Positions 15,339-36,671 of a stretch of DNA of 64,000 nucleotides are shown here, piece by piece (the stretch's first letter is position 1; every line of letters starts with the position of its first letter). Origin of the DNA: a virus (Duplodnaviria > Caudoviricetes); IMG/VR virus record IMGVR_UViG_3300046820_001270, positions 32,001 to 96,000 of that record; one strand, written 5' to 3'. A program made the position numbers and the translations under genes. The notes under the pieces are model-generated. The model did not search any database, was not told the origin of the DNA, and worked only from the letters and a program-made list of their open reading frames with translations.

Positions 15339-15992
15339 ATGAAAAATACTTTATGGATTTTTGGAGATTCAACAAGCGACGAATTTACACCAAAAAATTT
15401 AAATGATAATTTTGATTTTAGGACCAAATATTATAATTATAAAGGTTTTACACCAAAAGTGTTTGGTCAAATAATATCCGAAACATTAAATTTAAATTAT
15501 AAAAATAATTCAGGTCAGGGATTTTGTAATGATAGTATTTTTCAAACTATTTGTGACGTGTCAGACCAAATTAAAAAAGAAGATATATTAATAATTAATT
15601 GGACCTCAATTACAAGATTTAGAATGATAAGTAAAATTAATGTTTGGACACATATTGTCCCTAATTTTAATGTCGACACTAAATTATTTAATAATATTAG
15701 TAATAATACAATAAACGAAATATTAATTAATAGAGATAATGATCTATACGTTAATGACGTAAATTCAAAAATAAAATTAATTAAAAACGCATATAAAGAT
15801 AATATTGTTATTAATTGGACACCTTTCATACATAAATTTGATGCGGAAATGTTATTTGATGATTTTGAAACAATATTTAAAGAAACTTCAGGTGAGATAA
15901 ATGATTATCATTTTAGTGAAAACGGACATTTAAAATTAGCGGATTATTTATTATCAATTATAGATCAAATAATGAATAAAAAATTAATTTAA
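15339..15992 (+). CDS. SGNH/GDSL hydrolase-like protein
   Basis: WIFGDS block I; DYHFSENGH terminal block. Confidence 0.7.
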   Translation: MKNTLWIFGDSTSDEFTPKNLNDNFDFRTKYYNYKGFTPKVFGQIISETLNLNYKNNSGQGFCNDSIFQTICDVSDQIKKEDILIINWTSITRFRMISKINVWTHIVPNFNVDTKLFNNISNNTINEILINRDNDLYVNDVNSKIKLIKNAYKDNIVINWTPFIHKFDAEMLFDDFETIFKETSGEINDYHFSENGHLKLADYLLSIIDQIMNKKLI

Positions 15993-16031
15993 AATTTTAT
16001 TTATTCATTATTTTTAATTATATTAGTTTAA

Positions 16032-16463
16032 ATGAAACTAATATCACATAGAGGTAATTTGTATGGGCCTAATCCAAATGAAGAAAATAACCCTCAATAC
16101 ATTATAGATACTCTTGAATTAGGATACGACGTAGAAATTGACGTTTGGTATATAGACAATAAATTCTATTTAGGTCACGACTATGCTAAATATGAAATAG
16201 ACATTAAGTTTCTATTAAATGAAAAATTATGGTGTCATTCTAAAAATTTAGATGCGTTAAATGAAATGTTAAACAATGGAATTAGATGTTTTTGGCATCA
16301 AAATGATGATTTTACATTAACTAGTGATGGTTTTATATGGACATACCCAAATAAAGAAACAACAATAAAATCAATAATTGTTTGTTTAGATGATACTTTA
16401 CCAAATAATTTAAATAAAAATAATATATATGGAATTTGCGGAGACAATGTCGGATCTTGGTAA
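16032..16463 (+). CDS. PLC-like/glycerophosphodiester phosphodiesterase-like protein (short)
   Basis: LISHRGN, ENN, DVEIDVW, YLGHD. Confidence 0.75.
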   Translation: MKLISHRGNLYGPNPNEENNPQYIIDTLELGYDVEIDVWYIDNKFYLGHDYAKYEIDIKFLLNEKLWCHSKNLDALNEMLNNGIRCFWHQNDDFTLTSDGFIWTYPNKETTIKSIIVCLDDTLPNNLNKNNIYGICGDNVGSW

Positions 16464-17226
16464 AATTAAACGAATTGCTGTATGTTTAAGTGGTAATTTT
16501 AGAACTTGGAAAACAGTTGTTAAAACTTGGGATAATGTTATAAAAATCGATAACGTTGAAGTGGATTATTTTATTCATACATGGGATAAAGTATCTCCGT
16601 CAATGCAAATAATCGGAAATTTAAAAAAAACTGGTATTACGGATGAAGAGATACTAAAAGACTATTACAAACCATTAGATATGAATTTACTTAATGAAGT
16701 ATTAGATTATCATAAACCTGTTAGTTATTTAATCGAATCTCCAAAAGATTTAAGTTTTAAAAACCCTAAACAATCGATATTTGAAAAATCACATTTATCA
16801 CAATTTTTTGGGATAATGATGGTAGGTAAATTAAAGAGAGAACATGAAATTAAAAATGACTTCACATATGATTTAGTAATACGAATGAGATTCGATACAT
16901 ATTTTACTACACCAATAATAATTGATAACATTAAACCCAAATTAAACACAGTGTATGGAAATCACTATGATTATTATTATGATGAAGTATATAAAAGACA
17001 TAATGGTAGATTGGGGGACATTTTTTGGTGTTCAGATTCACTAACTTATGATATACTGTCGGATTTTTATTTAGAATTACAAAACATTACAGATATACCA
17101 CATGGGACACCACCAGAATTTAGTTGGTTGCGTTATATAAAGAAAAACGGGATTAACATAACACCAAATCCTAGATGGGACTTACATATTCTAAGGGAGA
17201 ATGATACGTTAAAAAAATTAATATAA
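16447..17226 (+). CDS. Putative GT-A-like glycosyltransferase, uncharacterised family (paralog 1)
   Basis: RIAVCLSG.FRT, YFIHTW, YDLVIRMRFD, GDIFW; start moved to ATG 16447. Confidence 0.5.
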   Translation: MSDLGKIKRIAVCLSGNFRTWKTVVKTWDNVIKIDNVEVDYFIHTWDKVSPSMQIIGNLKKTGITDEEILKDYYKPLDMNLLNEVLDYHKPVSYLIESPKDLSFKNPKQSIFEKSHLSQFFGIMMVGKLKREHEIKNDFTYDLVIRMRFDTYFTTPIIIDNIKPKLNTVYGNHYDYYYDEVYKRHNGRLGDIFWCSDSLTYDILSDFYLELQNITDIPHGTPPEFSWLRYIKKNGINITPNPRWDLHILRENDTLKKLI

Positions 17227-18000
17227 ATGGAAAAAAGAAAAATTGCAGTTTGTATAAGTGGACAAATAAGAACAGCGATTGAAGCCGTATCTAATTTTAA
17301 TTTATTTTTTCAGGATGAAGATATAGATGTGTTTATTCACACATGGTATGACCCATCATTAGAAGATCATGAAAATGTAATAAATCAAATAAAAACACTA
17401 TATAAACCAAAAAAATTTCAAATTGATATATCACCAAATACCAATAGACTTAATTTTGAGGTAATGTTAAAGACCATTATGTTATCAAATGAATTAAAAA
17501 GGAAATATGAAGTTGAGAATGATATTAGGTATGATGTCGTTGTAAAATATAGATTTGACATTTTATTTCCACAAATTACCAAATTTACAGTAAATAACAT
17601 AGAACCACGTACATTATATTACCCACAAGGGAATAACGGAGTACAACATACGGACTATAATAATCACGGGATGACTGATGTTATATTTTGGGGAGATTCC
17701 CAAACGATGGATATTGCTTGTGATACTTATAGATATTATAAATTCGTATTATTGCCAATTAGAAACACATTTGTCGAAAAAACTGGACATATTGTATATG
17801 ACATGTCAGAATCATTAATGAGTCCAGGACAAATCATATTTAAGTATGCAACAAAACATAATATTTTCCCGATGGTTCTTAAAAAAGACGATAATAATTT
17901 TATGAATTTTACATTATGGAGAAAGGAAGTAAAAAATCTAAATTGGATAAACGATTTCGATAAAATAGAACATTTTTATCTAAATCAATATAACGACTAA
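17227..18000 (+). CDS. Putative GT-A-like glycosyltransferase, uncharacterised family (paralog 2)
   Basis: KIAVCISGQIRT, VFIHTW, YDVVVKYRFD, TDVIFWG; clearly paralogous to the preceding gene. Confidence 0.5.
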   Translation: MEKRKIAVCISGQIRTAIEAVSNFNLFFQDEDIDVFIHTWYDPSLEDHENVINQIKTLYKPKKFQIDISPNTNRLNFEVMLKTIMLSNELKRKYEVENDIRYDVVVKYRFDILFPQITKFTVNNIEPRTLYYPQGNNGVQHTDYNNHGMTDVIFWGDSQTMDIACDTYRYYKFVLLPIRNTFVEKTGHIVYDMSESLMSPGQIIFKYATKHNIFPMVLKKDDNNFMNFTLWRKEVKNLNWINDFDKIEHFYLNQYND

Positions 18001-18012
18001 AAAAATAATATT

Positions 18013-18888
18013 ATGAAATTATTGGTAACAGGAGATAGTTGGACATATGGTAGTGAATTAAGATCCCCTGAATTAAAAAAAGAAGACTTAGATACTCATA
18101 AAAATAATACTGAGTATAGAACTAAAAATGCTTGGCCACATAAATTAAGTAAATTAATGGGTAATGTTGATGAAATGGTAAATATTTCAAAACCATCCGC
18201 TAGTAATGATCGAATAGTGAGAGAATTAATTGATTATTTAACTAAAAATTACATTAAAGATAAAAAACCTGTTGACGATTTATTTGTAATTGTTGGATTT
18301 TCATCGTTAGATAGAGTTGATTTTTTTTACGACGGTTTATTTGGTAGAGGTTGGGAAACGATTTGGCCAAAATTTAATCATCATTATAGATTTTCCGATA
18401 TTGAGGATTTTAGTAAATTATATAATGAAGGCTTCTCAACAATTTATGGAGACTTCAATAGATATGTAAATCAAATACAATTTTTAGAATTATTTTTTGA
18501 AAAACATCATATAAAATATATGTTTTTTCATGGATTTTATCATCATCAAAATAAATATATAAGTAATTGGGAAGATGTGTTATATGTAAACGGATTAGCT
18601 TACGAATCTGGTACTTATTATTCTAAATTACATAATGAATTTGATTTAGATAGATGGATTGATATTGATCCAATACGTTTTGTTGATAAGGATAAACCAA
18701 TTCATAGTTTTCATAATAGAATAAAAAAAATTGCGAATGACCAAGACATATCATTAGACAAAATATTTGCGAAAAATATTGGTATGCATCCGTCAGAACT
18801 TGGACATACCTTATGGGCGGAATATCTTTATGAATATATGAAAGAAAATAAAAAGTTATTTAAGTTTATTGAAAAAACATTAATATGA
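18013..18888 (+). CDS. SGNH hydrolase-like protein
   Basis: VTGDSWTYG, ASNDRI, HPSELGH. Confidence 0.75.
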   Translation: MKLLVTGDSWTYGSELRSPELKKEDLDTHKNNTEYRTKNAWPHKLSKLMGNVDEMVNISKPSASNDRIVRELIDYLTKNYIKDKKPVDDLFVIVGFSSLDRVDFFYDGLFGRGWETIWPKFNHHYRFSDIEDFSKLYNEGFSTIYGDFNRYVNQIQFLELFFEKHHIKYMFFHGFYHHQNKYISNWEDVLYVNGLAYESGTYYSKLHNEFDLDRWIDIDPIRFVDKDKPIHSFHNRIKKIANDQDISLDKIFAKNIGMHPSELGHTLWAEYLYEYMKENKKLFKFIEKTLI

Positions 18889-19655
18889 TAAAAAAATTAA
18901 TGATTTGTGGAGATAGTTATGCATCAGGAATTGGATTAGATGAAAGTTATAATTTAGAAAAATCTTTTGGAGGTTTAATTTCTGAAAAATTAAGTATACC
19001 CTCAATAAATTACTCACGAGCAGGTATTTGTAATTTTGGAATATTTTTACAAGTTAAAAAATCTATTGAGGATAATAAAAATGATTTAGATAAATCATTA
19101 GTTATTATTTCATTAACACAATCTAGTAGATTAATGATTGCTTCCGAAAATATAACATCTGAGGATTTGGATTTATCAAATGTTGATTACATTAATAATC
19201 GACCATTTTCATATAGTGAAAAAAGAAAAAGAGACGTACCATTTATATTAAACAAAAGTCCTAAATTATTTAGCCAAACTATTTTAGATGTATTGGCACA
19301 TTTAAATAATAAAGTGTCGGGTGCAATGGAAGATGCTTATAAGATTTTACCAAAATATAAAATTGAAACATTAGGACAATATATACAAGATGTTTACTCC
19401 GATCCAATAAAAGATGAATATGACGTGGCTTTGGTTGCAAGAACACATCTATTATTAAAGATGAACAATATTAAACACATATTTTTAGGATCTCCAAGAA
19501 GTAAATTTGATTTTGTACCTGATGAAAATTTTTGTGAAGTAAATTGGAGAGAAATATCGGATAAATATCCAGACGAAATAGGATCAAGTCATTGTAATGA
19601 ATTTGGCCACGAAATGGTAAGAGATTTAATTTTAAAAAAAATATCAAATGAATAA
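18885..19655 (+). CDS. SGNH hydrolase-like protein
   Basis: ICGDSYASG, GICNFGI, SHCNEFGH. Confidence 0.7.
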   Translation: MIKKLMICGDSYASGIGLDESYNLEKSFGGLISEKLSIPSINYSRAGICNFGIFLQVKKSIEDNKNDLDKSLVIISLTQSSRLMIASENITSEDLDLSNVDYINNRPFSYSEKRKRDVPFILNKSPKLFSQTILDVLAHLNNKVSGAMEDAYKILPKYKIETLGQYIQDVYSDPIKDEYDVALVARTHLLLKMNNIKHIFLGSPRSKFDFVPDENFCEVNWREISDKYPDEIGSSHCNEFGHEMVRDLILKKISNE

Positions 19656-20835
19656 AGACACATTCTGCATAATGACGTACAAAGGTTTATTCGTTGAACC
19701 TACAAAACATGTGAAACCATGTTGTGTATTCAAAGATTTTGAAACCCCGTTAATATATGATGAAAATAAAACATTTGATGAAATGTTTAATTCCCCTCAA
19801 TTTATTGAATTAAGAGAAAAAATGGACAATGGTATTGTTCATAGTGGTTGTGTAAATTGTTTTAATGGCACTATTAACCATAGAGAGGGTATGAACATTA
19901 TGTTTTTTGGTAACGACTATGAAAAACTTAAAGAATTAAATATAAGTGAAGATTATAAATCGGACGAGATTCTTTATTTAGATTTAAGAATTTCCAATTT
20001 ATGTAATTTTAAATGTAGAATGTGTAATGCAACATATTCTTCCTCATGGGAAGACGAAATGAAACAAATTGAACCTAATTTTATATCTGAACCGAAATGT
20101 GGACATAATTGGATTAATCCTATTGTAGATAAAATAGATAAGATAAAATATCTTTATTTAGCAGGAGGAGAACCTTTAATAATGAAGGAAACATTTCAAT
20201 TATTAAAGTTAATAGAAAATAGAAAAAATGAAATTACATTATTTTTAAATACTAATTTGTCAAATTTAGAGTATAAAAAAATAGATGTTATTAATGAAAT
20301 AATAGAATTTAATAAAATACATTTATTTGTATCTTGTGATGGGTTTGGAGAAGTCGGTGAATACCAAAGAACAGGATTTAATACGGAAAAGTTTAAAACT
20401 AATTTAAAGACATTACTAAGTAGGATTAATAACTTAGATAAAATAAAATTAGATATAATTTATGCGTTAAGTTCAATAAATGTCTATAACCTGTTTAATT
20501 TTATGAAAGAACTAAAGGAAGAATTTAATTTAGGAGATGAAGTTATTAATTTTCAGTTTGTTAGTTCACCATGGTATTTTAGTGTGGCATCTATGGATGA
20601 AACACATAAAAAAGATGTGGTAAGTTTTATAAAAGATAATTATCATTTTTGTAATGAAAAAACTAAAAATCAATTAGATAATTTTATATATTTTGTCGAA
20701 AACAATAAAGACAACATAACCACATATCAAAAAGAAAAAGACTATGAATTCTTAAAAAAATTAGATATATTTAGAAATACAAATATAAATGAGGTTTCAC
20801 CTTGGATTTTTAAAAGTATTTTTAATGAGTTATAA
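19648..20835 (+). CDS. Radical SAM enzyme (twitch/SPASM-like)
   Basis: CNFKCRMC, LAGGEP, N-terminal FC..PCC..CVNC. Confidence 0.9.
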   Translation: MNKDTFCIMTYKGLFVEPTKHVKPCCVFKDFETPLIYDENKTFDEMFNSPQFIELREKMDNGIVHSGCVNCFNGTINHREGMNIMFFGNDYEKLKELNISEDYKSDEILYLDLRISNLCNFKCRMCNATYSSSWEDEMKQIEPNFISEPKCGHNWINPIVDKIDKIKYLYLAGGEPLIMKETFQLLKLIENRKNEITLFLNTNLSNLEYKKIDVINEIIEFNKIHLFVSCDGFGEVGEYQRTGFNTEKFKTNLKTLLSRINNLDKIKLDIIYALSSINVYNLFNFMKELKEEFNLGDEVINFQFVSSPWYFSVASMDETHKKDVVSFIKDNYHFCNEKTKNQLDNFIYFVENNKDNITTYQKEKDYEFLKKLDIFRNTNINEVSPWIFKSIFNEL

Positions 20836-22578: not shown

Positions 22579-23802
22579 ATGAATATATATAAAAAAACGG
22601 CACCCGATAATCATTTTGTGGTCGAGTATTATTTGGAAGCAAAAACATCATTAAAAGATGCGGCTTGGAACATCGCTATAGGACAGAGTATAGGAAATCC
22701 AAATAATCGAAGTATTTGGGAAACTGAAGAAATGTATGAAAATCACATTTGTTTTATACTCGAAGATGAGGATTACTTAAAATCACATAAAAATGGTATT
22801 GTAAAAATTTCATTTCCACTTTCAAACATTAATTTAGAAGAAGACGGAATTTCACAAATTTTATGTCACATTGCTGGAGGACAAGTTGATATCTTAGAAA
22901 TTCAAAAATGTCATGTTTTAAATATTGAATTACCTGAAGATGTTGAAAACTCATTTAAATTAAAACCAGCATACGGTATAGACGGATTTAGAAAATTAAA
23001 TGGTGTTTACGAAAAACCATTTTTAGGTGGGATCATTAAACCAAAAGTTGGTATGTCACCGGAAGTGTTATTAGAAGTGGTAAAAGAAATGGTCAACGGA
23101 GGGGTTAATTTTATCAAAGAAGACGAGTTATTAGGAAACCCAAATCACTGTCCATTAGAACAAAGAGTACCACTTATTACAAAATGGTTAAAAGAAAATG
23201 CTCCTGATGTGATATATTGTTTTTGTATTAATGGAGATAGTCCATATGCATTACAAAGAGCCCAATTTGTGGTGGATAATGGGGGTAATGGTATTCATAT
23301 AAACGTTTGGAGTGGATTAGGTGTGTACCGAGCAATCAGGAAACAAAACCCAAATTTATGGATACATTTTCAAAAAAGTGGTGATAAATTTTTCACAGAT
23401 AAAAGAGCACCGTTTCACATATATTGGCCCGTGATTTGTAAAATTGCAGGATGGTCTGGTGTAGATTCAATTCATGCGGGTATGATTGGTGGGTATATGA
23501 ATCAGGATGAAGAAGAATTAAAAGACACTTTAAAAATGTTATGGAAATACAATATTGTTCCAGCTCTAAGTTGTGGTATGCATCCAGGATTAGTACAATA
23601 TGTTAATGAATCTTTAAAAAGTTTTGATTGGATGGCAAATGTCGGTGGAGCAATGCATGCACATCCGATGGGAACTTTGGGAGGAGGAATTGCCATGAAA
23701 CAAGCAATAAATAAAAACTTTGACGGACAAGAATTCAAAATTGCAACTGAGAAATGGGGCAATAAAGAGTTTAACCCAGATTTGGCTTATCGATATTTTT
23801 AA
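22579..23802 (+). CDS. RuBisCO-like protein (form IV, RLP)
   Basis: GIIKPKVG (K175/K177 equivalents), IKEDE (KxDE), IHAG, SCG, GGAMHAHP; loop-6 Lys absent. Confidence 0.9.
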   Translation: MNIYKKTAPDNHFVVEYYLEAKTSLKDAAWNIAIGQSIGNPNNRSIWETEEMYENHICFILEDEDYLKSHKNGIVKISFPLSNINLEEDGISQILCHIAGGQVDILEIQKCHVLNIELPEDVENSFKLKPAYGIDGFRKLNGVYEKPFLGGIIKPKVGMSPEVLLEVVKEMVNGGVNFIKEDELLGNPNHCPLEQRVPLITKWLKENAPDVIYCFCINGDSPYALQRAQFVVDNGGNGIHINVWSGLGVYRAIRKQNPNLWIHFQKSGDKFFTDKRAPFHIYWPVICKIAGWSGVDSIHAGMIGGYMNQDEEELKDTLKMLWKYNIVPALSCGMHPGLVQYVNESLKSFDWMANVGGAMHAHPMGTLGGGIAMKQAINKNFDGQEFKIATEKWGNKEFNPDLAYRYF

Positions 23803-25874: not shown

Positions 25875-26312
25875 ATGATATACTGGTTAACTGGACAACC
25901 CGCAGCAGGTAAAACAACATTAGGTACTTGGATTCAATCAAGTTTCCCTAATAAGTCCATAATTGTGGACGGAGACGATATCCGAGAAATATTCGTAAAT
26001 AAAGACTATTCTGAGGAAGGAAGGAAGAAAAACATTGAAAAGGCACAGATTTTGGCTAAGTTCCTTCATCATAAGGGTTATACCGTTATCGTATCGTTAG
26101 TTTCACCATATAGAGATCAAAGAGAAGAGTTTAAGAACGAAATGGGTGATAACTTAAGAGAAATCTATGTACATACCACCCAAGATAGAGGACGTAATCA
26201 TTTTCATGTTGAGGGGTATGAGCCACCTTTAGATAACTACTACGATTGTAATACTACAGATAGTAGTGAATATCAAACATTTTTAGAATTAAGAAGAAAA
26301 TTAAACATTTAA
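25875..26312 (+). CDS. cysC: Adenylylsulfate (APS) kinase
   Basis: GQPAAGKTT P-loop, VDGDDIRE, VIVSLVSPY, YEPP. Confidence 0.9.
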   Translation: MIYWLTGQPAAGKTTLGTWIQSSFPNKSIIVDGDDIREIFVNKDYSEEGRKKNIEKAQILAKFLHHKGYTVIVSLVSPYRDQREEFKNEMGDNLREIYVHTTQDRGRNHFHVEGYEPPLDNYYDCNTTDSSEYQTFLELRRKLNI

Positions 26313-26316
26313 TAAT

Positions 26317-26682
26317 ATGAGTAAGAAATATGCAATGTATGTTGGCAGATGGCAGAATTGGCACAAGGGCCACGAATGGTTAATTAACCAACAGTTAGAA
26401 AAGGGTAAGGATATTTGGGTTGCAATTAGAAATGTTCCGACAGATGAAAATAATCCTAAAACGGCCCAAGAAGTAATGATGGAATTAGCTGGTGAACCAT
26501 ATTTTATGGAAAATTCACATAGAATTAATATATCCATTATTCCAGATATTGAAAGTATCAATTATGGTAGAGGGGTTGGTTATGACGTTATTTATCACGA
26601 ACCACCACCTGAAGTTGAAGTAATAAGTGGAACTAAAATCCGTAATGGAGAAATGACAACTGACGGTAAAGTTAAAGGATAA
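26317..26682 (+). CDS. HxGH-type (cytidylyltransferase-like) nucleotidyltransferase
   Basis: GRWQNWHKGH and C-terminal ISGTKIR. Confidence 0.8.
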   Translation: MSKKYAMYVGRWQNWHKGHEWLINQQLEKGKDIWVAIRNVPTDENNPKTAQEVMMELAGEPYFMENSHRINISIIPDIESINYGRGVGYDVIYHEPPPEVEVISGTKIRNGEMTTDGKVKG

Positions 26683-27197
26683 TGATACACCAAAGAGTTT
26701 TATTTACCAAAGACGAATGTGATTACCTTATAAATTACAGAAATAATGGTGTTTACCGAAATAACGGAGGGTATGTAAACCATGTTGATATAAATTATAA
26801 ACAGTGGTCAATTTTCAGAAATAGTGATTTAGAATTTTTGTTTGATAGAATTATATCTTTTGCTGAAATATCCTTTGATGTAAAAATAGAAAATTTTAAA
26901 GAGGAAAGTTGGATCTATCAGTGGGAAGTGAATGACGGTTATGGAATGCATAGGGATAATGTTAAAAATAGGAAATTCATAATAGGTGTACAATTGAATG
27001 ACGATTATGTTGGAGGGGATTTAATGGTTGATTATGGTAATCAAATATTAATTGCGGATAAAACAATTGGTAATTGTTATACTTTTGAATCCGCAATGTT
27101 ACACGGAGTTTCACCTATAATATCGGGTAATAGATTTAATATGTTAACTTTTTTTCCAACGTATAATATAAAACAGAATAAAGTTAGTTTAATATGA
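26682..27197 (+). CDS. 2OG-Fe(II) oxygenase
   Basis: HRD, YVGGDL, LHGVSPIISGNRF. Confidence 0.85.
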   Translation: MIHQRVLFTKDECDYLINYRNNGVYRNNGGYVNHVDINYKQWSIFRNSDLEFLFDRIISFAEISFDVKIENFKEESWIYQWEVNDGYGMHRDNVKNRKFIIGVQLNDDYVGGDLMVDYGNQILIADKTIGNCYTFESAMLHGVSPIISGNRFNMLTFFPTYNIKQNKVSLI

Positions 27198-27403
27198 TAG
27201 TAGAAAGAAAAAGACACATAGTTAAAACAATATCGTATCGTGTTATTAGTACTTTAATAGGGTTTGTTATAATGTGGTGGGTAAGTGGATCAATTAAAGT
27301 TGGTGCGGCATTTGGTGTGGCGGAATTGATATATAAACCCATACAATATTACATTCACGAAAGAATATGGTATAAGTGGATAAAATATGGATTAAAAAAA
27401 TAA
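27194..27403 (+). CDS. Small membrane protein (DUF2061-like)
   Basis: RHIVKTISYR..YYIHERIW with two hydrophobic segments. Confidence 0.75.
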   Translation: MIVERKRHIVKTISYRVISTLIGFVIMWWVSGSIKVGAAFGVAELIYKPIQYYIHERIWYKWIKYGLKK

Positions 27404-27439: not shown

Positions 27440-28003
27440 ATGATTGGTAATATAGACATATTTGAAAAATTCCTATCACCCGAAGAATGCGACCTTATTT
27501 TAAATAAATGTAAAGGAGAATTAACATTATCAAAGGCGAAAGTATACGGGGATAATTCTAACGATACTCATACTAAAACAATTAGAAAATCATCAATCGG
27601 GTGGATATCTGATTTAGGATTTTTAAATGAAAGATTAACAAATATATTAAAAAAAACATTCACAATAAACGGTATGGAAGTTACTGGATTAGGTAATTAT
27701 CAATTTACTGAATACAAAGAAGACGAATATTTTGATTGGCATACTGATAGTACGGACACTATATATAGAGATAGATTTACATCAATAGTAATTCAATTAA
27801 ACGATACATATCAAGGTGGAATATTGGAAATAAAAAATATTAAAGGAGAACTAGTACCAATAGAAAATAAAATAGGAACGTTATATATTTTTAATTCAAG
27901 ATTATCACATAGAGTAACACCTGTGGTAGATGGTATTAGATACTCATTAGTAAATTGGGTATCATTAGTTAAAACCGATTCAAAAAAACAAAATCTTTTA
28001 TAA
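27440..28003 (+). CDS. 2OG-Fe(II) oxygenase (prolyl-hydroxylase-like)
   Basis: YQFTEY..WHTD, YQGGILE, HRVTPV..GIRYSLVNW. Confidence 0.9.
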   Translation: MIGNIDIFEKFLSPEECDLILNKCKGELTLSKAKVYGDNSNDTHTKTIRKSSIGWISDLGFLNERLTNILKKTFTINGMEVTGLGNYQFTEYKEDEYFDWHTDSTDTIYRDRFTSIVIQLNDTYQGGILEIKNIKGELVPIENKIGTLYIFNSRLSHRVTPVVDGIRYSLVNWVSLVKTDSKKQNLL

Positions 28004-28579: not shown

Positions 28580-29821
28580 ATGAAAGTTACAATTATAGGT
28601 GGAGGAACTGCCGGTTGGTTATCGGGTTTATATTTTAATTCTCAGGGATATGAAGATATTACAATTATAGATAGTTCCAAAGTTGGAATATTAGGTGCGG
28701 GAGAGGCATCTACACCAAATTTAAATGGATTATTATTAAATTTAGGAATTGATAAGATTGATTTTTTAAAAACAACCGGAGCAACCATAAAGGTATCGAA
28801 TGATTTTATAAATTGGTCTCCCTTCGGAGGTAAATACGAAAACCCATTCGGTCACCCCAATAGATTAAAAGAAGAAAATGATAATACATATGGTTATCAT
28901 TTTGATGCGAGAGAATGTGCTAAGTATTTTAAAAATATAGGAATTAATAGAGGAATAAAACATTTAGATGTTAATATTACACATTTTACTCAAAATGAAA
29001 ACGGAGATATTACCAATATTCATACCGAAGAAAAAATAAACATTGAAACAGAATTTGTTATCGATTGTAGTGGTTTTGGTAGATTATGTATCGGTAAATT
29101 ATATAATAGTAAATGGAAATCGTATTCGGAATATTTGAAGGCTAACTGTGCAATTGCATATTTTCTACCACAGGATAGAGTATTGACAGAAAATTCTAAA
29201 ACACATACCCAATCCATTGCTATGAAAAACGGATGGATGTGGCAAGCACCACTACAACATAGATGGGGATGTGGATATGTGTTTAATGATACTTACATTA
29301 CAAATGAAGAGGCTAAAAAAGAAGTTGAAGATTACTTGGGTAGAGAAATTGAAATTGTTAAAACTTTCAAATTTGATGCTGGTGGGTATGAAGAAACATG
29401 GATTAATAATTGTGTTGCACTTGGGTTATCTAGCGGATTTTTAGAACCATTAGAAGGAACATCGTTAATGTCCGTTATATGGTCTTTAAATAAATTAAGT
29501 GATATTAGGTTAGAAAATTGTAATTTTGAAAATAGAAAATTATATAATGAATATGTTAATAATGTAAATTATCAATCTATGTTGTTTGTTAGACATCATT
29601 ATAATTGTGGTCGAACTGATACTAAATTTTGGAGAGATATAAATAATACTAAATTACCATCAGATTTAATTAAAATACTTAGAAGTTTAGAAAAGAATAT
29701 TGAAGACGATTCATTGATTTATATTACAAGTAAAAAAGATGGATTACCAATATTTGGTAAAAATCATTATCAAATAGTTGATTTGGGTCATAAATCAAAA
29801 ACAATAAAAACATTTTTATAA
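28580..29821 (+). CDS. Tryptophan halogenase (PrnA/RebH)-family flavoprotein
   Basis: IIGGGTAGW, GAGEAST, IDCSG, GWMWQAP (WxWxIP-like), FLEPLEGTS. Confidence 0.85.
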   Translation: MKVTIIGGGTAGWLSGLYFNSQGYEDITIIDSSKVGILGAGEASTPNLNGLLLNLGIDKIDFLKTTGATIKVSNDFINWSPFGGKYENPFGHPNRLKEENDNTYGYHFDARECAKYFKNIGINRGIKHLDVNITHFTQNENGDITNIHTEEKINIETEFVIDCSGFGRLCIGKLYNSKWKSYSEYLKANCAIAYFLPQDRVLTENSKTHTQSIAMKNGWMWQAPLQHRWGCGYVFNDTYITNEEAKKEVEDYLGREIEIVKTFKFDAGGYEETWINNCVALGLSSGFLEPLEGTSLMSVIWSLNKLSDIRLENCNFENRKLYNEYVNNVNYQSMLFVRHHYNCGRTDTKFWRDINNTKLPSDLIKILRSLEKNIEDDSLIYITSKKDGLPIFGKNHYQIVDLGHKSKTIKTFL

Positions 29822-29822
29822 G

Positions 29823-30332
29823 ATGAATCATATATTAGTTGATAATTTTTTTAACGACCCCCATTCAATCAGAAAACTTGCATTGTCTATGGAATATGTT
29901 AAATCATCTAAAAAAACAGGATGGAAAGGATATAGAGTCATTATAAATAATGATGATATAAAAAAATATATTAAATATAAATTAATTGAAATAGATAAAA
30001 AATTTGAAAATTTATTGATAGATGAAATTTTTTTTCATTATATTTTAGAGGAAAATAGAAATGATTTAAAAAAAAGATTACACAAAGACACAACAGATTT
30101 TGCTGGAGTTATTTACCTCACACCAAACCCACCTAAAAATTCAGGAACAACCTTACATAACGATAATACCAATTTGGAGAACGTAATTGATAATGTATAT
30201 AATAGATTTATTTTCTATGACGGAAAAAAATTACACGGCCCACAAGATACTTTTGGTAATAGTATTGAAAATGGTAGATTAACATTAACCATGTTTGCAA
30301 ATATTAGTAAGAATAAAAAAACAATAATATAA
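29823..30332 (+). CDS. DUF6445-like putative 2OG-Fe(II) oxygenase
   Basis: VDNFFNDP..IRKLAL, HKD, YLTP, NVYNR, LHG, RLT. Confidence 0.7.
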   Translation: MNHILVDNFFNDPHSIRKLALSMEYVKSSKKTGWKGYRVIINNDDIKKYIKYKLIEIDKKFENLLIDEIFFHYILEENRNDLKKRLHKDTTDFAGVIYLTPNPPKNSGTTLHNDNTNLENVIDNVYNRFIFYDGKKLHGPQDTFGNSIENGRLTLTMFANISKNKKTII

Positions 30333-30334: not shown

Positions 30335-30937
30335 ATGATTGAAGAAATAAAATTAAATGATAATACTAATATCTATAAATCAAAAATAAAAATTACCGAT
30401 AAAAATAAATTGATATCGGATATAAAACTTAATTTAGATATTTCCATAAATTCAAAAAATTCAACCCCCACCGAACCTGGTATCCAATCAACTATTGTAA
30501 TATCAACACCTTCCATACGAGAATTAAATGAAAAAATAATAGATGTATTATTTAAAAATTCTAAGATAGATATAAATACACCATATATCACAAATCAATG
30601 GGTTTATATTAGTGATAAGAAGAATACATATTATGGATTTCATTCCCACGATAAGAAAAATCACACAAACATACCGTTACAATGGACATATACTTATTAT
30701 GTCCAAATGCCAAATAATTTAGTTGGGGATGATGGTAAATTAGTTTTTAAATTAGATAATGATACTACACATTCCATATTGCCTGAAGTTGGTGATTTAC
30801 TTATATTTCCCACAACATTATTACATGCACCAATGACTAATACTAATTCGGAAATAGAAAGAATTGTATTTGCTGGAGTTTGGAGTTATATTGACACAAC
30901 AATTCAAATTAGAAAAAAAAATAAAACATTATTATAA
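30335..30937 (+). CDS. Putative 2OG-Fe(II) oxygenase
   Basis: HSHD, YYV, GDLLIFP..LLHA..ERIVFA. Confidence 0.8.
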   Translation: MIEEIKLNDNTNIYKSKIKITDKNKLISDIKLNLDISINSKNSTPTEPGIQSTIVISTPSIRELNEKIIDVLFKNSKIDINTPYITNQWVYISDKKNTYYGFHSHDKKNHTNIPLQWTYTYYVQMPNNLVGDDGKLVFKLDNDTTHSILPEVGDLLIFPTTLLHAPMTNTNSEIERIVFAGVWSYIDTTIQIRKKNKTLL

Positions 30938-30938
30938 T

Positions 30939-31226
30939 ATGTTAAATTTTAAAGAAATATTTACATCTTGGGCGAAACTTTCAAATCCAACAGAACAAGA
31001 GGAACGATTAGCTAAAATTAGATTTTCAATATGTGAAGGTTGTCAATATAAGAAAGAGATTATTAAGACAAAGAAGTGGTCGTTATTATGTGGAAAATGT
31101 GGATGTCCTATACGGGCAAAAGTTTTTTCAGATCAGATTAATCCGTGTCCTATGGGATATTGGAAAGATATCGATAAAAATTTTGGATTAGATATTGATG
31201 AAAAGAATAAAAAATCAATAATTTAA
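30939..31226 (+). CDS. Cys-rich small protein (DUF6171-like)
   Basis: R..ICEGC..CGKCGCP..K..CPMGYW; start moved to ATG 30939. Confidence 0.7.
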   Translation: MLNFKEIFTSWAKLSNPTEQEERLAKIRFSICEGCQYKKEIIKTKKWSLLCGKCGCPIRAKVFSDQINPCPMGYWKDIDKNFGLDIDEKNKKSII

Positions 31227-31255
31227 TATATACATATATATAAGTATATTTCAAA

Positions 31256-31292
31256 TTAAATATATAATTTAAATATTAAATTATATATTTAA
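31256..31292. repeat. Perfect 17-bp inverted repeat with 3-nt spacer
   Basis: ttaaatatataatttaa-ata-ttaaattatatatttaa in the intergenic region before the ATP-grasp/Hint gene. Confidence 0.85.
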
Positions 31293-31348
31293 GAGAACAA
31301 TTACTAAAAATAAACTATTTATCAAATAACATAAATAATATAAAGAAT

Positions 31349-32863
31349 ATGAAAGGTACAATTATTGGGACGGACTTATTAGAATTTAACAATTCGGTAA
31401 AAATTTTAGAAATAAACACAAATACAACTATCTTCAACAGTGCAGTTGATTTGTTAGATTATACATTATTTTTTGAAATGTTAGTTAATAATAATATTAA
31501 CGAATTACATTTTATTTATAATGAGTCGGATGCGTATATAAATGATACCGATACAATGCTTTTTTTATTTGAAGAAAGATTAAAAACAAAATGTATTGAG
31601 AATGGTATCACATATTTTGATTACAAAGTACCAGCTAATTCTGTAACTGTACCGTTTATTGAAGATGCTAATAATAAATTTATTTTAAGACAGGCATTTG
31701 ATACGACTGCGTTGGTAGATGAAACATATTGTGCAGATAAATTTGAATTTTTTAATTTAATGAAAGATTCACAATATATTCCAAAAACATATATAAATAA
31801 TGGTACTGAATTATCTTTTGACACCTTTAATACTATAAGTAATTATACAAACGGTAGACCAAATTTAGTTAAAAAAGATAGATACCCAAGTTATGATTTT
31901 CATTTATATCCTGCTTTATCTAAATTAACTACCGATGTACAATTATCTCAATTAAAAACATCAGTAGATAATACCACGTTTTTGATACAAGAATTTATTT
32001 ATGATGATGCTAATATAGTAAATAATAGATGGAATGTTATCAGAAGTATTGATATATTATATGGTGGTGAATTAGATGTTTTAAATATGGGATCATATAA
32101 AACATCCGTATTTGTTGATGTAGATGCGTGGGCGGATGAATATGAATCAGATGGTACTACACTCACTAAAAAAAGTAGATATACATGGGTAAATAAGCCA
32201 GTGTACAATACAGGTGATTTTAATTATCATACAAATGGTGAATCATTAGTATTGGGTAGTGATGGGACATTATTAAATTTAAATAATTTACAAATCGGTA
32301 ACCCAATAGCGTCGGTTAATTTTACAGACGAAGACGGATTATCACCAAATTCATACGATGCAGATAGTTTTAGAACTCCACATAGACAATGGGGTAGTAC
32401 AATAGAACAAGCACAATCAACTTTAACTAATACCCCATCGGAAGTATTAGATATAACATCAAAAACAGTTTCAGAAATAATGTTAAAAATAACATTAGAA
32501 AATGGAGTTAGTTGGAATGAACCAAGAGATACAATTTACTTAATCCAAGCTGCAAATTCAAATGTTACTCATTTTGACAGATTAAATACGGTAGAAATTG
32601 GAGATAAAATGGTTACTTATAATAAAACTACATTAGAATTATCAACTTTAGTAATTACAGGGATTGAAATAGTATATGATGAGATCATCGGATACAATAT
32701 AAATATTCAACCATCGGATCTATTTTTAGTTGATGTAACTACCGATTTATTTGTGGTACAACATAATTATAGTTGTGACTTTTGCGGTTGGTACTCTTGT
32801 GGTGATTATTTTTGTAGCTATAACTGTCCTGGATGTAATCAAGGACTTCCCCCTAAAGTTTAA
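31349..32863 (+). CDS. Circularly permuted ATP-grasp + Hint (intein-like) domain + C-terminal six-Cys peptide
   Basis: GTDLL..ILEINTN at the N-terminus, then DKF..IPKT..LVKK..IQEFI; Hint blocks SLVL.SDG..LQIG, VEIGD, GYNINI..FLV, VQHN; tail YSCDFCGWYSCGDYFCSYNCPGCNQGLPPKV. Confidence 0.7.
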   Translation: MKGTIIGTDLLEFNNSVKILEINTNTTIFNSAVDLLDYTLFFEMLVNNNINELHFIYNESDAYINDTDTMLFLFEERLKTKCIENGITYFDYKVPANSVTVPFIEDANNKFILRQAFDTTALVDETYCADKFEFFNLMKDSQYIPKTYINNGTELSFDTFNTISNYTNGRPNLVKKDRYPSYDFHLYPALSKLTTDVQLSQLKTSVDNTTFLIQEFIYDDANIVNNRWNVIRSIDILYGGELDVLNMGSYKTSVFVDVDAWADEYESDGTTLTKKSRYTWVNKPVYNTGDFNYHTNGESLVLGSDGTLLNLNNLQIGNPIASVNFTDEDGLSPNSYDADSFRTPHRQWGSTIEQAQSTLTNTPSEVLDITSKTVSEIMLKITLENGVSWNEPRDTIYLIQAANSNVTHFDRLNTVEIGDKMVTYNKTTLELSTLVITGIEIVYDEIIGYNINIQPSDLFLVDVTTDLFVVQHNYSCDFCGWYSCGDYFCSYNCPGCNQGLPPKV

Positions 32864-32890
32864 ATTAAATATAAAATTAAATAAAAAATT

Positions 32891-33034
32891 ATGCAAGAAT
32901 TACCTTTAACGAAATTAGAAAGACCAAATCAACACATTAAGGTTCAAATCAATTCACTTTCAACTGATTTAAAAAATAAAGTTAAAGTTGCGGTTCAAGA
33001 AGTTGTAACTAAGATTAAAGAAAAACATCTTTAA
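32891..33034 (+). CDS. 47-aa hypothetical protein (not in the ORF track)
   Basis: Hand translation MQELPLTKLERPNQHIKVQINSLSTDLKNKVKVAVQEVVTKIKEKHL; A-rich leader; fills the intergenic gap. Confidence 0.6.
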   Translation: MQELPLTKLERPNQHIKVQINSLSTDLKNKVKVAVQEVVTKIKEKHL

Positions 33035-33048
33035 TATATTGATGCATT

Positions 33049-33891
33049 ATGAAATTATTTGCATTTGGTGATAGCTGGACTGCCGGCCAAGGCTGTAATT
33101 TAAAAGTAGAGAATAGTTTTACCGATGAAAATGAACGAAAGATATATAGAAATAGTATGTCTTGGCCTAAATATTTATCCGAACATTTAAATGTAGATTT
33201 TGAAAATTTAAGTAAATCTGGATCATCCAATAAAGAAATTTTTGACACTATTATTGAAACCATCAAATCGAACATCATAAAAGATAATGATTTGGTGGTT
33301 ATTATGTGGAGTTCGTCGTTAAGAGATAATACTCCCTTTTTTCCAAATGGAGAATGTCACATTTGGGGCAAAACTCATATAGAAAACAAATGGAAATTTA
33401 ATTGGATTATAAACTCAATTAGAAATTCAAAAGGAGAGTTAAAACACGAATCTGATTTAAAATATAATCATTTTTTAAAATCTTATAAACAATTTTACAT
33501 TGATGACTTATATAACGATTCATACTATAACATAGTAAATCAAAATTACATTCTATTCATTCAAAAATTATTAGAATCGTATAATATTAATTATGTTTTT
33601 TGTGATGCGTTTGATTTTATGATCACTAAAAACATAAAGATTGATTTAGATAAAACACATTTTATTAATAAATCCAATTATTATAAATTTGGAGAAGTAA
33701 CAGCTAAAGACTTTTTAATTTCATTAGACCCAACTGATTCGGATTTATGGGAGGACTCTTCAAAATGGACAAATATATCCGGAAAACACCCAAATGCAAA
33801 AGGATATCAAAAAATATCTGATGAATTATACGATTTTATAATAAAATCAAATATTATAAAAAAGAACAAATCAATAATTAAAATGTTATAA
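33049..33891 (+). CDS. SGNH hydrolase-like protein
   Basis: AFGDSWTAG, GSSNKEI, HPNAKGY. Confidence 0.75.
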   Translation: MKLFAFGDSWTAGQGCNLKVENSFTDENERKIYRNSMSWPKYLSEHLNVDFENLSKSGSSNKEIFDTIIETIKSNIIKDNDLVVIMWSSSLRDNTPFFPNGECHIWGKTHIENKWKFNWIINSIRNSKGELKHESDLKYNHFLKSYKQFYIDDLYNDSYYNIVNQNYILFIQKLLESYNINYVFCDAFDFMITKNIKIDLDKTHFINKSNYYKFGEVTAKDFLISLDPTDSDLWEDSSKWTNISGKHPNAKGYQKISDELYDFIIKSNIIKKNKSIIKML

Positions 33892-34436
33892 TGGAATTTT
33901 CAATAAATAAATTTTTTGACAAAGAAGAGTGTAATTCCATATTAGAATATGTGGATGGTATAGGTGTGCCATTTTCTTATAACCCAAACGAAACATGGGA
34001 TTGTAAAAGAATATATGATGAAAGTTTTAAAACGAATATTCTTAACAGATTAATATTGAATTACGAAAAAAATAAATTTAAATTATGGTTTGATTTAAAT
34101 GAGTTTGACATAAAAGATATTAATGTTAGTTTAACAAAATATTATGACGGTAGATGGTTAGATTTGCATTTAGACTCCACATCTCAATTCACATCTGTTA
34201 TAATATTAACAGATGAATTTGACGATGGTAGATTTGCATTGTCAAATACATATGAAGATATTAATAATACCGAAAAATATCATTTAGATATTGGACAATC
34301 AATATCATTTGACGGTAGTAAAATTTATCACGGAGTAATGCCAGTTAAAAAAGGTTTAAGATGTGCATTAAATATATGGACAACTAATACCGATTTTAAA
34401 TATAGACCTTTAAAAAATAATAAAAGTATTATATGA
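33891..34436 (+). CDS. 2OG-Fe(II) oxygenase
   Basis: HLD, FDDGRF, YHGVMPV.KGLR. Confidence 0.85.
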   Translation: MEFSINKFFDKEECNSILEYVDGIGVPFSYNPNETWDCKRIYDESFKTNILNRLILNYEKNKFKLWFDLNEFDIKDINVSLTKYYDGRWLDLHLDSTSQFTSVIILTDEFDDGRFALSNTYEDINNTEKYHLDIGQSISFDGSKIYHGVMPVKKGLRCALNIWTTNTDFKYRPLKNNKSII

Positions 34437-35086
34437 GAATAGCAATAGTGTGTAATGGTAGGAGCGGATCTAGCTCAATGATTAATTATATAAATTGTTG
34501 TTTGTTAAACGAATATAAAAAATATAACATTTTTTTTGAACCATTTAATTATCTGAACATCGACGCGTCCGGTAAACTAAAAGTAATTGATGAAATAGTA
34601 AATAAAAAAGATGTGTTATTGAAAACCTTCATAGATAATGATAATTATCCATATGAATCATTCGATAATATTGAACAATATTGGGAATGGGTATATTCAT
34701 TTTTTGATAAAATAATAGTATTAGAAAGAAAAAATAAAAGATTACAAGCGGAATCGTTAGTTTATCATATTAGAATATCTAAAAACAGAACTGTATCACC
34801 ACGTTGGCTTAAACCTAAATACTATGATTTAAACGAATTAGATGAACAACATATAATAGATTTAACAAAACATTTGGAATCTGAATCTTTAGTTTTAAAA
34901 TCAATTTCAAATAAAGGATACCCATTATTTTATTATGAGGATATATTTGTGGACAAAGATATTGAAACAATAAAACGTTTAAACGAATATTGTGAGATAG
35001 AGTATAATCAAATATGTATTGATGAATGGATTAATTCACCATATAAAAAAGTAAGAATAGAAACAAAATCTAATAAATTAATATGA
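34433..35086 (+). CDS. Sulfotransferase-like P-loop protein
   Basis: CNGRSGSS 5'-PSB-like loop, FEPFN, LERKN..QAES, YYED. Confidence 0.7.
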   Translation: MRIAIVCNGRSGSSSMINYINCCLLNEYKKYNIFFEPFNYLNIDASGKLKVIDEIVNKKDVLLKTFIDNDNYPYESFDNIEQYWEWVYSFFDKIIVLERKNKRLQAESLVYHIRISKNRTVSPRWLKPKYYDLNELDEQHIIDLTKHLESESLVLKSISNKGYPLFYYEDIFVDKDIETIKRLNEYCEIEYNQICIDEWINSPYKKVRIETKSNKLI

Positions 35087-35607
35087 AAATTTTAATAATC
35101 GCATTACCAAGAACAGGTTCTACAAGTTTAGGGGAACTGCAGACCAAAAAACACAATATAAAAAAATATTTATTTGAACCATTTAATCCAAAAAATACTG
35201 AAAGATATAATTCTAACGAAAGTAATGTTGTAGTTAAAACACTTGTATTTCAAATTTTAGAGGACATTAAAGAAGAAAATAGAATTGAATGGTTGATAAA
35301 TTTAACAAAAGAATTTGATGAGGTTATTTTATTGACAAGAAAAGATTTAGTAGCTTGTGGAGAAAGTTGGGCGTATTTAAATTATTTTCACGAAACAAAA
35401 AAGTTTATGTATTATGAGAATTATTTATGGAAATCAACTCCATATGATACATCAGCATATAATCAAATACTTTCATTTAATGAAGATTTAAAATTTATTT
35501 CCAAAAGTATAAATGTACCTATAACATATTATGAAGATATTTTTGACATAAACGGAGAAGGAAGATTAAGAAAAGGTAATAGAACAAATACATTAAATAT
35601 TATATAA
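35083..35607 (+). CDS. Sulfotransferase-like P-loop protein
   Basis: ALPRTGSTS, FEPFN, LTRKD..ES, YYED. Confidence 0.7.
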   Translation: MKILIIALPRTGSTSLGELQTKKHNIKKYLFEPFNPKNTERYNSNESNVVVKTLVFQILEDIKEENRIEWLINLTKEFDEVILLTRKDLVACGESWAYLNYFHETKKFMYYENYLWKSTPYDTSAYNQILSFNEDLKFISKSINVPITYYEDIFDINGEGRLRKGNRTNTLNII

Positions 35608-36671
35608 TGATTAATTTAAATGAATATGTTTGTACCGTACCGTTTACATCAATGGAAATACATGATGAATCATATTTTCTTTGTTGTGCTAGTTGGTTAA
35701 CAAAATACTTACCGAAAAATCAGCCAATGGATGGTATGTGGAATTCGGAAGAATCTATTGATATAAGAAAATCGGTAATGGATGGAACATATCGTAATTG
35801 TGATAAAACACAATGTCCATATCTGTCACAGTTAATTAACTTAAATAATAAGAGTTTAGGACCTATTAAACATATAAATGAATTACCCGAAGACATAAAA
35901 AAATATGTAAACGAACAAAATGGTATTATGGAAACTGGACCGAAAATAGTTCACATGTCATTTGATAGAAGTTGTAATTTAAAATGTCCATCATGTAGAA
36001 TAGAATCTATAATGGCAAATGGTGAAAAATTAGAAAAAATAGATATAACAATTGAAAAAATGGAGGAGTTATATTCCAACTCGATTGAAACAATTTATTG
36101 TTCTGGGACGGCGGATCCATTTGCTTCTAAATCGTATAGAAATTATCTTAAAAATTTTAATTTTAAAAAATATCCAAATTTAAAATATATTCATCTACAT
36201 ACAAATGCAACTTTATGGGATGAGAAAATGTGGGAAGAAATGAAAAATATACATCCATATGTTAAAACTTGTGAAATAAGTATAGATGCCGCGAGAAAAG
36301 AAACATATGAAAATGTAACTAGATTAGGTGGAAATTGGGATAAATTAATATCAAATTTAAAATTTATATCAACAATAAAAAGTTTAACAAGTGTTAAGTG
36401 TTCATTTGTTGTTCAACAAAGCAATTATACCGAAATGACTGAATTTTTAGAACTAATACATGATATTTTTGGTATGAAAACAAAAGTGTTTTTTGGTAAA
36501 ATAACAAATTGGGGAACTTTTAGTGATGGACAATATAAATTATTAAAAGTGTGGGACAATAGTCATCCCGAGTTTAATCTATTTTTAGAAGAGTTTAAAA
36601 AAGTGGCATTAAATCCATTTGTATTTCATAATATGTATGAATTATTGGACAATAAAAAGTCTTTAATATAA
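35607..36671 (+). CDS. Radical SAM enzyme with N-terminal SPASM-like domain
   Basis: CNLKCPSC; CTVPF..LCC..C..CP; GTADPF replaces GGEP. Confidence 0.85.
   Translation: MINLNEYVCTVPFTSMEIHDESYFLCCASWLTKYLPKNQPMDGMWNSEESIDIRKSVMDGTYRNCDKTQCPYLSQLINLNNKSLGPIKHINELPEDIKKYVNEQNGIMETGPKIVHMSFDRSCNLKCPSCRIESIMANGEKLEKIDITIEKMEELYSNSIETIYCSGTADPFASKSYRNYLKNFNFKKYPNLKYIHLHTNATLWDEKMWEEMKNIHPYVKTCEISIDAARKETYENVTRLGGNWDKLISNLKFISTIKSLTSVKCSFVVQQSNYTEMTEFLELIHDIFGMKTKVFFGKITNWGTFSDGQYKLLKVWDNSHPEFNLFLEEFKKVALNPFVFHNMYELLDNKKSLI

Follow-up and report, generated by a model that had tools for sequence, protein, structure and literature searches.

A C-terminal motif shared by unrelated phage enzymes and linked to an ATP-grasp/Hint precursor-like gene

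Introduction

Why should enzymes of different folds, encoded side by side in a phage genome, end in nearly the same few amino acids? The question is raised by a stretch of 64,000 nucleotides (nt) from the IMG/VR virus record IMGVR_UViG_3300046820_001270 (positions 32,001 to 96,000; the whole stretch is called the window below, and its coordinates count from its first letter), in which fourteen proteins encoded between 15339 and 36671 carry a short hydrophobic C-terminal tail, hereafter the tag. The window is AT-rich (25–37% GC), its plus-strand genes are tightly packed up to 43 kb, and the stretch was found in sequencing runs labelled as freshwater metagenomes. A protein identical to its halogenase was found on a contig of 334,492 bp. 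Among GenBank phages no DNA match to window 26–37 kb was detected, and a window 2-oxoglutarate (2OG) oxygenase matched only Synechococcus phage genes of about 30% identity.

Results

The tag in the window

The fourteen C-termini listed in the original prediction, which had been made from the sequence of the window alone, were read back exactly (Table 1). The pattern [KNST][LIFM][LI]-COOH is present on 14 of the 30 genes inside 15339–36671 and on 0 of the 49 genes elsewhere in the window (Fisher P ~1e-7), which agrees with the claim that the tag is scarce beyond 36.7 kb. At internal positions of the same proteins this pattern occurs with a frequency of 0.0106, and the enrichment of the terminal residues over this background is strong (binomial P ~3e-20). 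The tag is thus real and stronger than had been described. The description of its carriers as fourteen unrelated proteins was too generous: BLAST clustering revealed three 2OG oxygenases of one family, three SGNH hydrolases and two sulfotransferase-like proteins, leaving about nine sequence families, which still span at least six different folds. The class I PDZ-ligand consensus [ST]-X-[VIL]-COOH fits eight of the fourteen tails, the same number as counted earlier.

In the protein ending at 33891 the tag KSII stands three residues short of the end and is followed by KML, again an end of Lys and two hydrophobic residues. Tags lying some residues from the end were seen in two proteins, this one (33049–33891) and one encoded in a related locus (L008, 8415–8846; KSLI followed by GV). 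Both look as if the stop codon had shifted, the new end of the window protein fitting the tag again.

Spread of the tag over families and genomes

Related loci were retrieved from IMG/VR with the radical SAM (S-adenosylmethionine) enzyme and the halogenase; five of them are tagged (L001–L004, L008) and four are cyanophage-like (L005–L007, L009). In the tagged loci syntenic genes retain the tail although the orthologues are only 44–70% identical, and across contigs the tail is kept by syntenic genes at 26–70% identity, so that its conservation in related phages is borne out. The halogenase homologues of the cyanophage-like loci (38–40% identity) are devoid of the tag. Every tagged cluster also encodes an untagged protein of about 500 residues without a Pfam match (window 31349–32863), referred to here as the precursor-like protein. 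An alignment of four such proteins served as the bait for a further IMG/VR search, which returned 138 relatives; 80 loci were taken (contigs up to 333 kb), and open reading frames (ORFs) were called as the longest ATG frames. Two aliphatic residues end 805 of the 1458 ORFs in these loci, many of which are mutually related, so such counts do not represent independent events and the robust part of the data is the contrasts between families and between junctions.

A sequence logo was built, with no filter, from the 634 island genes that occupy the five positions ahead of the bait gene and the four behind it. Lys is found at −7 in 53% and at −4 in 54% of them, Ser or Thr at −3 in 63%, Leu or Ile at −2 in 92%, and Ile or Leu at −1 in 92%; the class I PDZ-ligand rule is thereby followed at both of its positions. 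For genes eight or more positions from the bait gene the logo is nearly flat at every position. The terminal hydrophobic residues of the original prediction were confirmed, and the motif reaches further upstream than had been recognised, to the Lys residues at −7 and −4. These results clearly show that the tag is a genuine C-terminal short linear motif with the consensus K-x-x-K-[S/T]-[L/I]-[I/L]-COOH, present in 473 of 507 unique island proteins (93%).

When the proteins were clustered by BLAST, the tag proved to be bimodal by family, with 28 families of at least three members being at least 80% tagged. Among these are two 2OG oxygenase families (family 0, 161/165; family 5, 68/68), an unnamed family of 253 residues (81/81), sulfotransferase-like proteins (family 3, 75/75), a 95-residue Cys-rich family (family 4, 74/74), SGNH hydrolases (family 6, 60/65), radical SAM enzymes (family 14, 16/16) and metallophosphoesterases (11/11). 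The halogenases are tagged in 48 of 52 cases, the four exceptions being the cyanophage-like controls, and of the 120 best halogenase homologues in a database of 5.8 billion proteins (43–100% identity) 114 end in the tag. Untagged are the precursor-like protein (family 1, 1/81), a 125-residue protein with an HxGH motif (0/41), DUF2061 (0/40) and carbamoyltransferase (0/9); the adenosine 5'-phosphosulfate (APS) kinases are mostly untagged (5/31 tagged).

A complete relative of 288,673 bp (G001), with terminal repeats and a T4-type Gp23 major capsid gene, was also available. Of its 24 ORFs that end in [LIFM][LI], 13 lie within 31–58 kb, and such ends amount to about 3% in the remaining genome. 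The island is conserved in freshwater T4-like giant phages, where nearly all soluble tailoring enzymes are tagged: several 2OG families, the Trp-type halogenase, sulfotransferase-like proteins, SGNH hydrolases, radical SAM enzymes, a metallophosphoesterase and a small Cys-rich protein.

A second shared tail, YNAxKTRFGL, was noticed in two of the cyanophage-like loci and rejected as a form of the tag, as it is the end of paralogous Laminin_G_3 domains. These ConA-like paralogues stand in tandem (L006, 6100–9840 and 12866–14292; L007, 7321–8109), all with YNAxKTRFGL-like ends.

Protein signal versus DNA signal

The main alternative named by the original prediction was an artefact of A-rich translation-initiation regions and ATGA/TAATG overlaps. 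For Leu at −2, the shares of TTA, TTG, CTA, CTT and CTG match those seen for internal Leu, and Ser at −3 is encoded by both TCN and AGY codons in background proportions, so the variation of Ser and Leu codons pointed out earlier follows general usage. Within families, the codon differences are synonymous in 47% of cases at −2, 31% at −3 and 30% at −1, and in 7–8% at −5 and −6. ATA makes up 77% of the codons for a last Ile but 42% of those for internal Ile, and tagged genes have about twice the share of TGA stops; both observations indicate that ATGA overlaps shape the final codon, and they were the only nucleotide-level effects found.

The tagged fraction of island genes was 0.99 at ATGA junctions, 1.00 at TAATG junctions and 0.98 at gaps of 0–3 nt, and it remained at 0.87 for gaps above 30 nt and 0.81 for convergent or last genes, which upholds the claim that the tag persists at genes followed by gaps. 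Outside the island of the complete relative, the fraction was 0.15 at ATGA and 0.07 at TAATG junctions. Since the codons at −2 and −3 follow the background, the differences between relatives are synonymous, genes before gaps and convergent ends carry the tag and junctions outside the island do not, the artefact is contradicted. The tag is a peptide-level signal kept by selection and restricted to one gene island.

Linkage to the precursor-like gene

Counted from the bait gene, the fraction of tagged genes was 0.99 at positions −4 to −1 and 0.93, 0.96 and 0.91 at positions +1 to +3, but 0.01 for the bait gene itself; from ±7 outward it was mostly 0.04–0.36. A member of the 95-residue Cys-rich family directly precedes the precursor-like gene in 73 of 77 loci. 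Because the loci of this profile had been chosen through the bait, a second sample was seeded from eight tagged halogenases on long contigs, and a precursor homologue was present 1–4 kb downstream in all eight. In the loci with untagged halogenases (L005–L007, L009) it was found in 0 of 4 within the DNA examined. The tag and one untagged precursor-like gene are thus linked in both directions. The window genes that lack the tag include Pfam-assigned cofactor supply, membrane proteins and the precursor-like protein, whose families are untagged or mostly untagged across loci; the only constant large untagged gene of the island is that of the precursor-like protein.

Directly after this gene lies a small ORF (window 32891–33034), untagged homologues of which, 46–52 residues long and ending in KHLG or K[EA]KHLS, occupy the same place in seven related loci (including L106, 15073–15213, and L108, 17091–17231, as well as L109–L112). 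It is a candidate for a further partner in the system.

Architecture of the precursor-like protein

No Pfam family matched the precursor-like protein. An AlphaFold2 model was obtained from 52 sequences, with a mean predicted local distance difference test score (pLDDT) of 81.7 and a predicted template modelling (TM) score of 0.76. With the C-terminal half, Foldseek retrieved the hedgehog Hint structure 1at0, inteins and bacterial intein-like domains (E 2e-7 to 1e-5, target TM 0.7–0.78). The Hint fold carries the terminal His-Asn pair before the nucleophile, and His472, Asn473 and Cys476 are invariant in the 52 sequences. The N-terminal half yielded a single match, the ATP-grasp protein YjfC (7uk6; E 1.2e-5 over 341 columns, low TM), and retains an invariant E21-x-N23 together with other polar residues. 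The predicted layout is therefore an ATP-grasp-like N-terminal half and a Hint fold ending in His472-Asn473, then a disordered peptide of 31 residues, rich in Trp and Tyr, with six Cys. Over the disordered last 30 residues, most relatives share the pattern C-W-C-P-W-x-Y-C-G-x-[WY]-C-x-S-x-Y-C-P-x-C...K-[LIV].

It is well established from intein chemistry that a Hint domain ending in His-Asn before Cys can release the part downstream of it by Asn cyclisation. By analogy, the Hint domain of the precursor-like protein might release the terminal peptide in this way. No homologue of the protein was found among GenBank phage proteins or in 185,579 GTDB species genomes. A divergent homologue of 617 residues (26% identity) is encoded in two of the related loci (L107, 12745–14598; L113, 12748–14601), where the His-Asn pair and the Cys-rich segment are internal and are followed by about 150 residues with a second Hint-like end; the genes around it are still tagged.

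Tail structure and search for a reader

The AlphaFold2 model of the tagged 2OG oxygenase 33891–34436 has an overall pLDDT of 93. Its last strand, and with it the fold, ends at residue 165, residues 166–181 are coil, and the tag (177–181) has pLDDT below 50. In this model the catalytic fold is followed by a disordered extension, of which the tag forms the tip. Sequence prediction detected neither a signal peptide nor a hydrophobic or membrane segment in the fourteen tagged window proteins, which are accordingly predicted to be cytoplasmic.

In the complete relative no match to PDZ_2, PDZ_6 or Peptidase_S41 was obtained at E <= 0.1 (PF00595 was not searched), and no CLP_protease gene was found. 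Of the PDZ analogy drawn earlier, the formal consensus therefore stands, but the genome supplied no gene of these families and the tagged proteins have no signal peptide. A complex prediction for the precursor-like protein with the tagged 2OG oxygenase 33891–34436, both with alignments, gave a score of 0.02, which speaks neither for nor against binding.

Gene content of the window

The coordinates of the island features are collected in Table 1. A Pfam scan of the region identified GDSL/SGNH and DUF6071 hydrolases, radical SAM enzymes, DUF6445, four 2OG-Fe(II) oxygenases, one Trp-type halogenase, a RuBisCO-like protein, a carbamoyltransferase and APS kinase, as well as a fusion protein and a fibre. 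For the Cys-rich ORF, the ATG at 30939 (95 residues) is the most likely start, rather than the TTG at 30864. The sulfotransferase assignment of two tagged families is weak: by PDB profile search, the protein 34433–35086 matched the NodH and CurM sulfotransferases at E 0.14–0.23 only, and the second family gave no sulfotransferase match.

Table 1 Features of the island in window coordinates (family numbers as in the text)
Feature	Position	Strand	C-terminal tail	Remarks
SGNH/GDSL-like hydrolase	15339–15992	+	NKKLI	family 6; 39-nt gap after
DUF7796-like protein	16429–17226	+	LKKLI	Pfam
DUF6071/SGNH-like protein	18013–18888	+	EKTLI	Pfam, clustering
APS kinase	25875–26312	+	untagged	Pfam
121-residue protein, HxGH-type motif	26317–26682	+	untagged	
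2OG-Fe(II) oxygenase	26682–27197	+	KVSLI	family 0; between untagged HxGH and DUF2061 genes
DUF2061 membrane protein	27194–27403	+	untagged	
2OG-Fe(II) oxygenase	27440–28003	+	KQNLL	Leu codon CTT; 20-nt gap after
Flavin-dependent Trp-halogenase family enzyme	28580–29821	+	IKTFL	
DUF6445 protein	29823–30332	+	KKTII	Pfam
2OG-Fe(II) oxygenase, second family	30335–30937	+	NKTLL	family 5
Cys-rich (CxxC...CxxC) protein, 95 residues	30939–31226	+	KKSII	family 4; 122-nt gap after
Hub candidate: ATP-grasp-like half, Hint fold, six-Cys peptide	31349–32863	+	untagged	family 1
Conserved small ORF, 47 residues	32891–33034	+	ends KEKHL	directly after precursor-like gene
GDSL/SGNH hydrolase	33049–33891	+	KSII+KML	Pfam
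2OG-Fe(II) oxygenase	33891–34436	+	NKSII	Pfam, AlphaFold2 model
Sulfotransferase-like protein (weak assignment)	34433–35086	+	SNKLI	family 3
Sulfotransferase-like paralogue (weak assignment)	35083–35607	+	TLNII	N-terminal LPRTGSTSL loop
Radical SAM enzyme	35607–36671	+	KKSLI	family 14; 36-nt gap with promoter-like motif after

The genes for APS kinase, the 121-residue HxGH-motif protein and the DUF2061 membrane protein (25875–27403) recur together upstream of the halogenase in relatives, and may provide activated sulfate for the sulfotransferase-like enzymes. An untagged RuBisCO large-chain-like protein (22579–23802, Pfam E 9e-33) is also encoded in the island and adjoins a cupin-like ORF and the carbamoyltransferase. 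Beyond the radical SAM gene (36708–41670) lie the genes of a 1000-residue GT4/FkbM-methyltransferase/GT9 fusion and of a collagen-repeat fibre with a Peptidase_S74 chaperone domain, both untagged.

A promoter-like motif, TTTTCWTTATATTATA or similar, recurs upstream of the window ATGs at 1631, 16032, 25875, 36708, 42005, 51502 and 57336. It stops just 2–8 nt 5' of the start codon, which suggests leaderless or near-leaderless transcripts; no Shine-Dalgarno motif was evident in the upstream regions looked at in the window.

Discussion

From these results, the tail is very probably a functional signal at the level of the peptide and tied to the island. As to what this signal does, we lean towards a docking motif for one common partner. 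That the partner is the precursor-like protein is a possibility to be held tentatively; docking, the receptor and the role of the terminal peptide as substrate are what we infer from the arrangement of the island. Recruitment by a shared receptor, as proposed in the original prediction, gains from the context, namely the two-way linkage to the precursor-like gene and the lack of the tag on supply, membrane and precursor-like proteins, but no receptor was identified.

In the mechanism that we propose, one common partner would read the free hydrophobic C-terminus, and a dozen unrelated enzymes would thereby assemble on a single substrate. Fewest assumptions are needed if that partner is the folded ATP-grasp/Hint body of the precursor-like protein and the substrate is its terminal peptide. 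A large "leader protein" would thus recruit a dozen enzymes, each bearing a four-residue address, which would invert the logic of RiPPs (ribosomally synthesised and post-translationally modified peptides), where the recognition sequence is on the substrate. Trp, Tyr, Pro, Cys and Ser abound in the terminal peptide, and these are residues on which halogenases, sulfotransferases, prolyl-type hydroxylases and radical SAM enzymes could act. It is conceivable, though we would not call it probable, that the product is a phage-made, conotoxin-like Cys-rich peptide, halogenated, sulfated, hydroxylated or cross-linked while the tags dock on the precursor body, and freed by Asn cyclisation of the Hint type.

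Several points count against this proposal or limit it. Most of the loci were found with the precursor-like protein as bait, and the halogenase-seeded sample that offsets this is small (8 loci). Some tagged genes of the window (15.3–18.9 kb) lie 12–16 kb away from the precursor-like gene; the signal must then act in trans, so that any protein of the phage or of the host might read it. The sole complex prediction, with its score of 0.02, decides nothing about binding, and the tagged minority of the APS kinases (5 of 31) blurs the division between tagged tailoring and untagged supply enzymes.

In the main rival explanation, a host AAA+ machine (ClpX, FtsH or Lon) would recognise the tail as a degron or remodelling signal and so limit the lifetime of potentially harmful enzymes. 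MuA bears a C-terminal signal for ClpX and FtsH reads non-polar tails; basic residues followed by a hydrophobic free C-terminus may be likened to both. A tail predicted to be disordered and exposed, on proteins predicted to be cytoplasmic, would suit such a machine, as would the absence of a phage-encoded reader in the complete relative among the PDZ, S41 and ClpP families searched. Against it stand the confinement of the tag to one island and its two-way tie to one precursor-like gene, and untagged proteins within the island are not what a general timing degron predicts; we regard this explanation as unlikely, albeit worth keeping in mind.

Considerably less probable is that the ATP-grasp domain acts on the tail itself. 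Enzymes of the ATP-grasp class activate carboxylates and link them to Lys, Ser or Thr; the tag conserves Lys at −4 and −7, Ser or Thr at −3 and a free carboxylate, any of which might undergo ligation or cyclisation of the kind known from graspetides and from protein C-termini, and the ATP-grasp-like half retains many invariant polar residues. Covalent alteration of a dozen enzymes would, however, bring no obvious benefit, and the motif is basic, whereas the protein C-terminal ATP-grasp substrates known to us are acidic.

An address to the virion or another phage-built compartment, in the style of cargo loading, ranks just below this in probability. Encapsulin cargo carries short C-terminal loading peptides, and T4 uses a capsid-targeting sequence; both may serve as precedents, and the complete relative encodes a T4-type major capsid protein. 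In that genome, however, the island is at 46–54 kb and the head genes are at 141 kb, the enzymes need cytoplasmic cofactors, the supply genes are untagged, and the T4 signal is N-terminal. The prohead and the fibre-assembly site, suggested earlier as destinations, found no support.

It is also improbable, to a greater degree still, that the tail merely serves the enzyme that bears it, for instance by helping it to stay soluble, fold or self-associate, and is not read by a common partner. A Lys-rich tail can improve solubility, and tails of Lys, Asn, Ile and Leu come cheaply from AT-rich DNA, but the strict end of two hydrophobic residues, its occurrence on at least six folds and its link to one gene would be left unexplained, and the tail is not packed on the 2OG oxygenase model. 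The last alternative, that signals in the DNA around gene junctions (initiation regions, ATGA/TAATG overlaps or sites of cassette recombination) give rise to the tail as a side effect, could point to the ATA skew and the doubled TGA stops; these are outweighed by the codon and junction contrasts given above, and its likelihood is negligible.

If docking on a common partner is the function, an address of four residues, carried by more than 25 unrelated enzyme families and maintained in hundreds of uncultured giant phages, would offer nature a compact means of putting together a multi-enzyme tailoring line on one substrate. The tail would provide a simple handle for spotting pathway members in metagenomes, and it points to an undescribed phage-encoded peptide product with an autoprocessing precursor. 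Should the reader be identified, the pair of tag and reader could be reused to co-localise enzymes. As the tag is short and the candidate partners are few, the question is directly testable.

Comparison with known systems

Full-text literature searches yielded no description of the tag or of such a Hint-linked precursor. The nearest gene arrays are the tandem dioxygenases and tryptophan halogenases of cyanophages, for which Iyer et al. (2010, PMC2938197; 2021, PMC7824862) predicted peptide modification or the synthesis of secondary metabolites. As in the island, several 2OG dioxygenases, Trp-type halogenases and carbamoyl- or sulfotransferases stand together there; a shared C-terminal tag and an ATP-grasp/Hint precursor are not mentioned in the matched passages of these two papers. 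The cyanophage-like loci of this study differ from the island in having untagged halogenases and no precursor homologue.

Peptides of encapsulins and microcompartments resemble the tag in that unrelated enzymes share one short terminal peptide and are encoded beside the gene of its reader. The encapsulin motif is rich in Gly, Ser and Leu and thus different, and the candidate partner here is an ATP-grasp/Hint protein rather than a shell of capsid fold; no shell family was present in the Pfam scans of the window island genes or among the Pfam families on record for eight further loci. The T4 capsid-targeting peptide is found on proteins encoded with the head genes and is cut off by the prohead protease. 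It is N-terminal, unlike the tag, and in the complete relative about 90 kb separate the island from the gene of the major capsid protein.

Class I PDZ ligands, and with them the ends recognised by tail-specific proteases, share with the island proteins a hydrophobic last residue with a free carboxylate and Ser or Thr at −3 (63% of the island proteins). The PDZ rule, however, makes no provision for Lys, which the tag conserves at −4 and −7, and bacterial PDZ proteases are mostly periplasmic, whereas the tagged enzymes have no signal peptides. The C-terminal signals of ClpX (ssrA-like and MuA-like) are likewise short exposed tails with basic and then aliphatic residues, but the tag is limited to one island and linked to one precursor-like gene. 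In the tails that bind the sliding clamp, many unrelated proteins, such as polymerases and repair enzymes, dock on a hub through one short hydrophobic end; the motif is a different one, and the carriers here are metabolic and tailoring enzymes.

RRE-type domains, the recognition elements of RiPP pathways, were absent from the Pfam scans of the window region. The principle is nevertheless similar in RiPP leaders with their RREs and in the X-domain of glycopeptide non-ribosomal peptide synthetases, which recruits cytochromes P450: unrelated tailoring enzymes are brought to one peptide by a shared element. The arrangement proposed here would differ from both in that the short element is on the enzymes, and the large folded one would be on the substrate protein.

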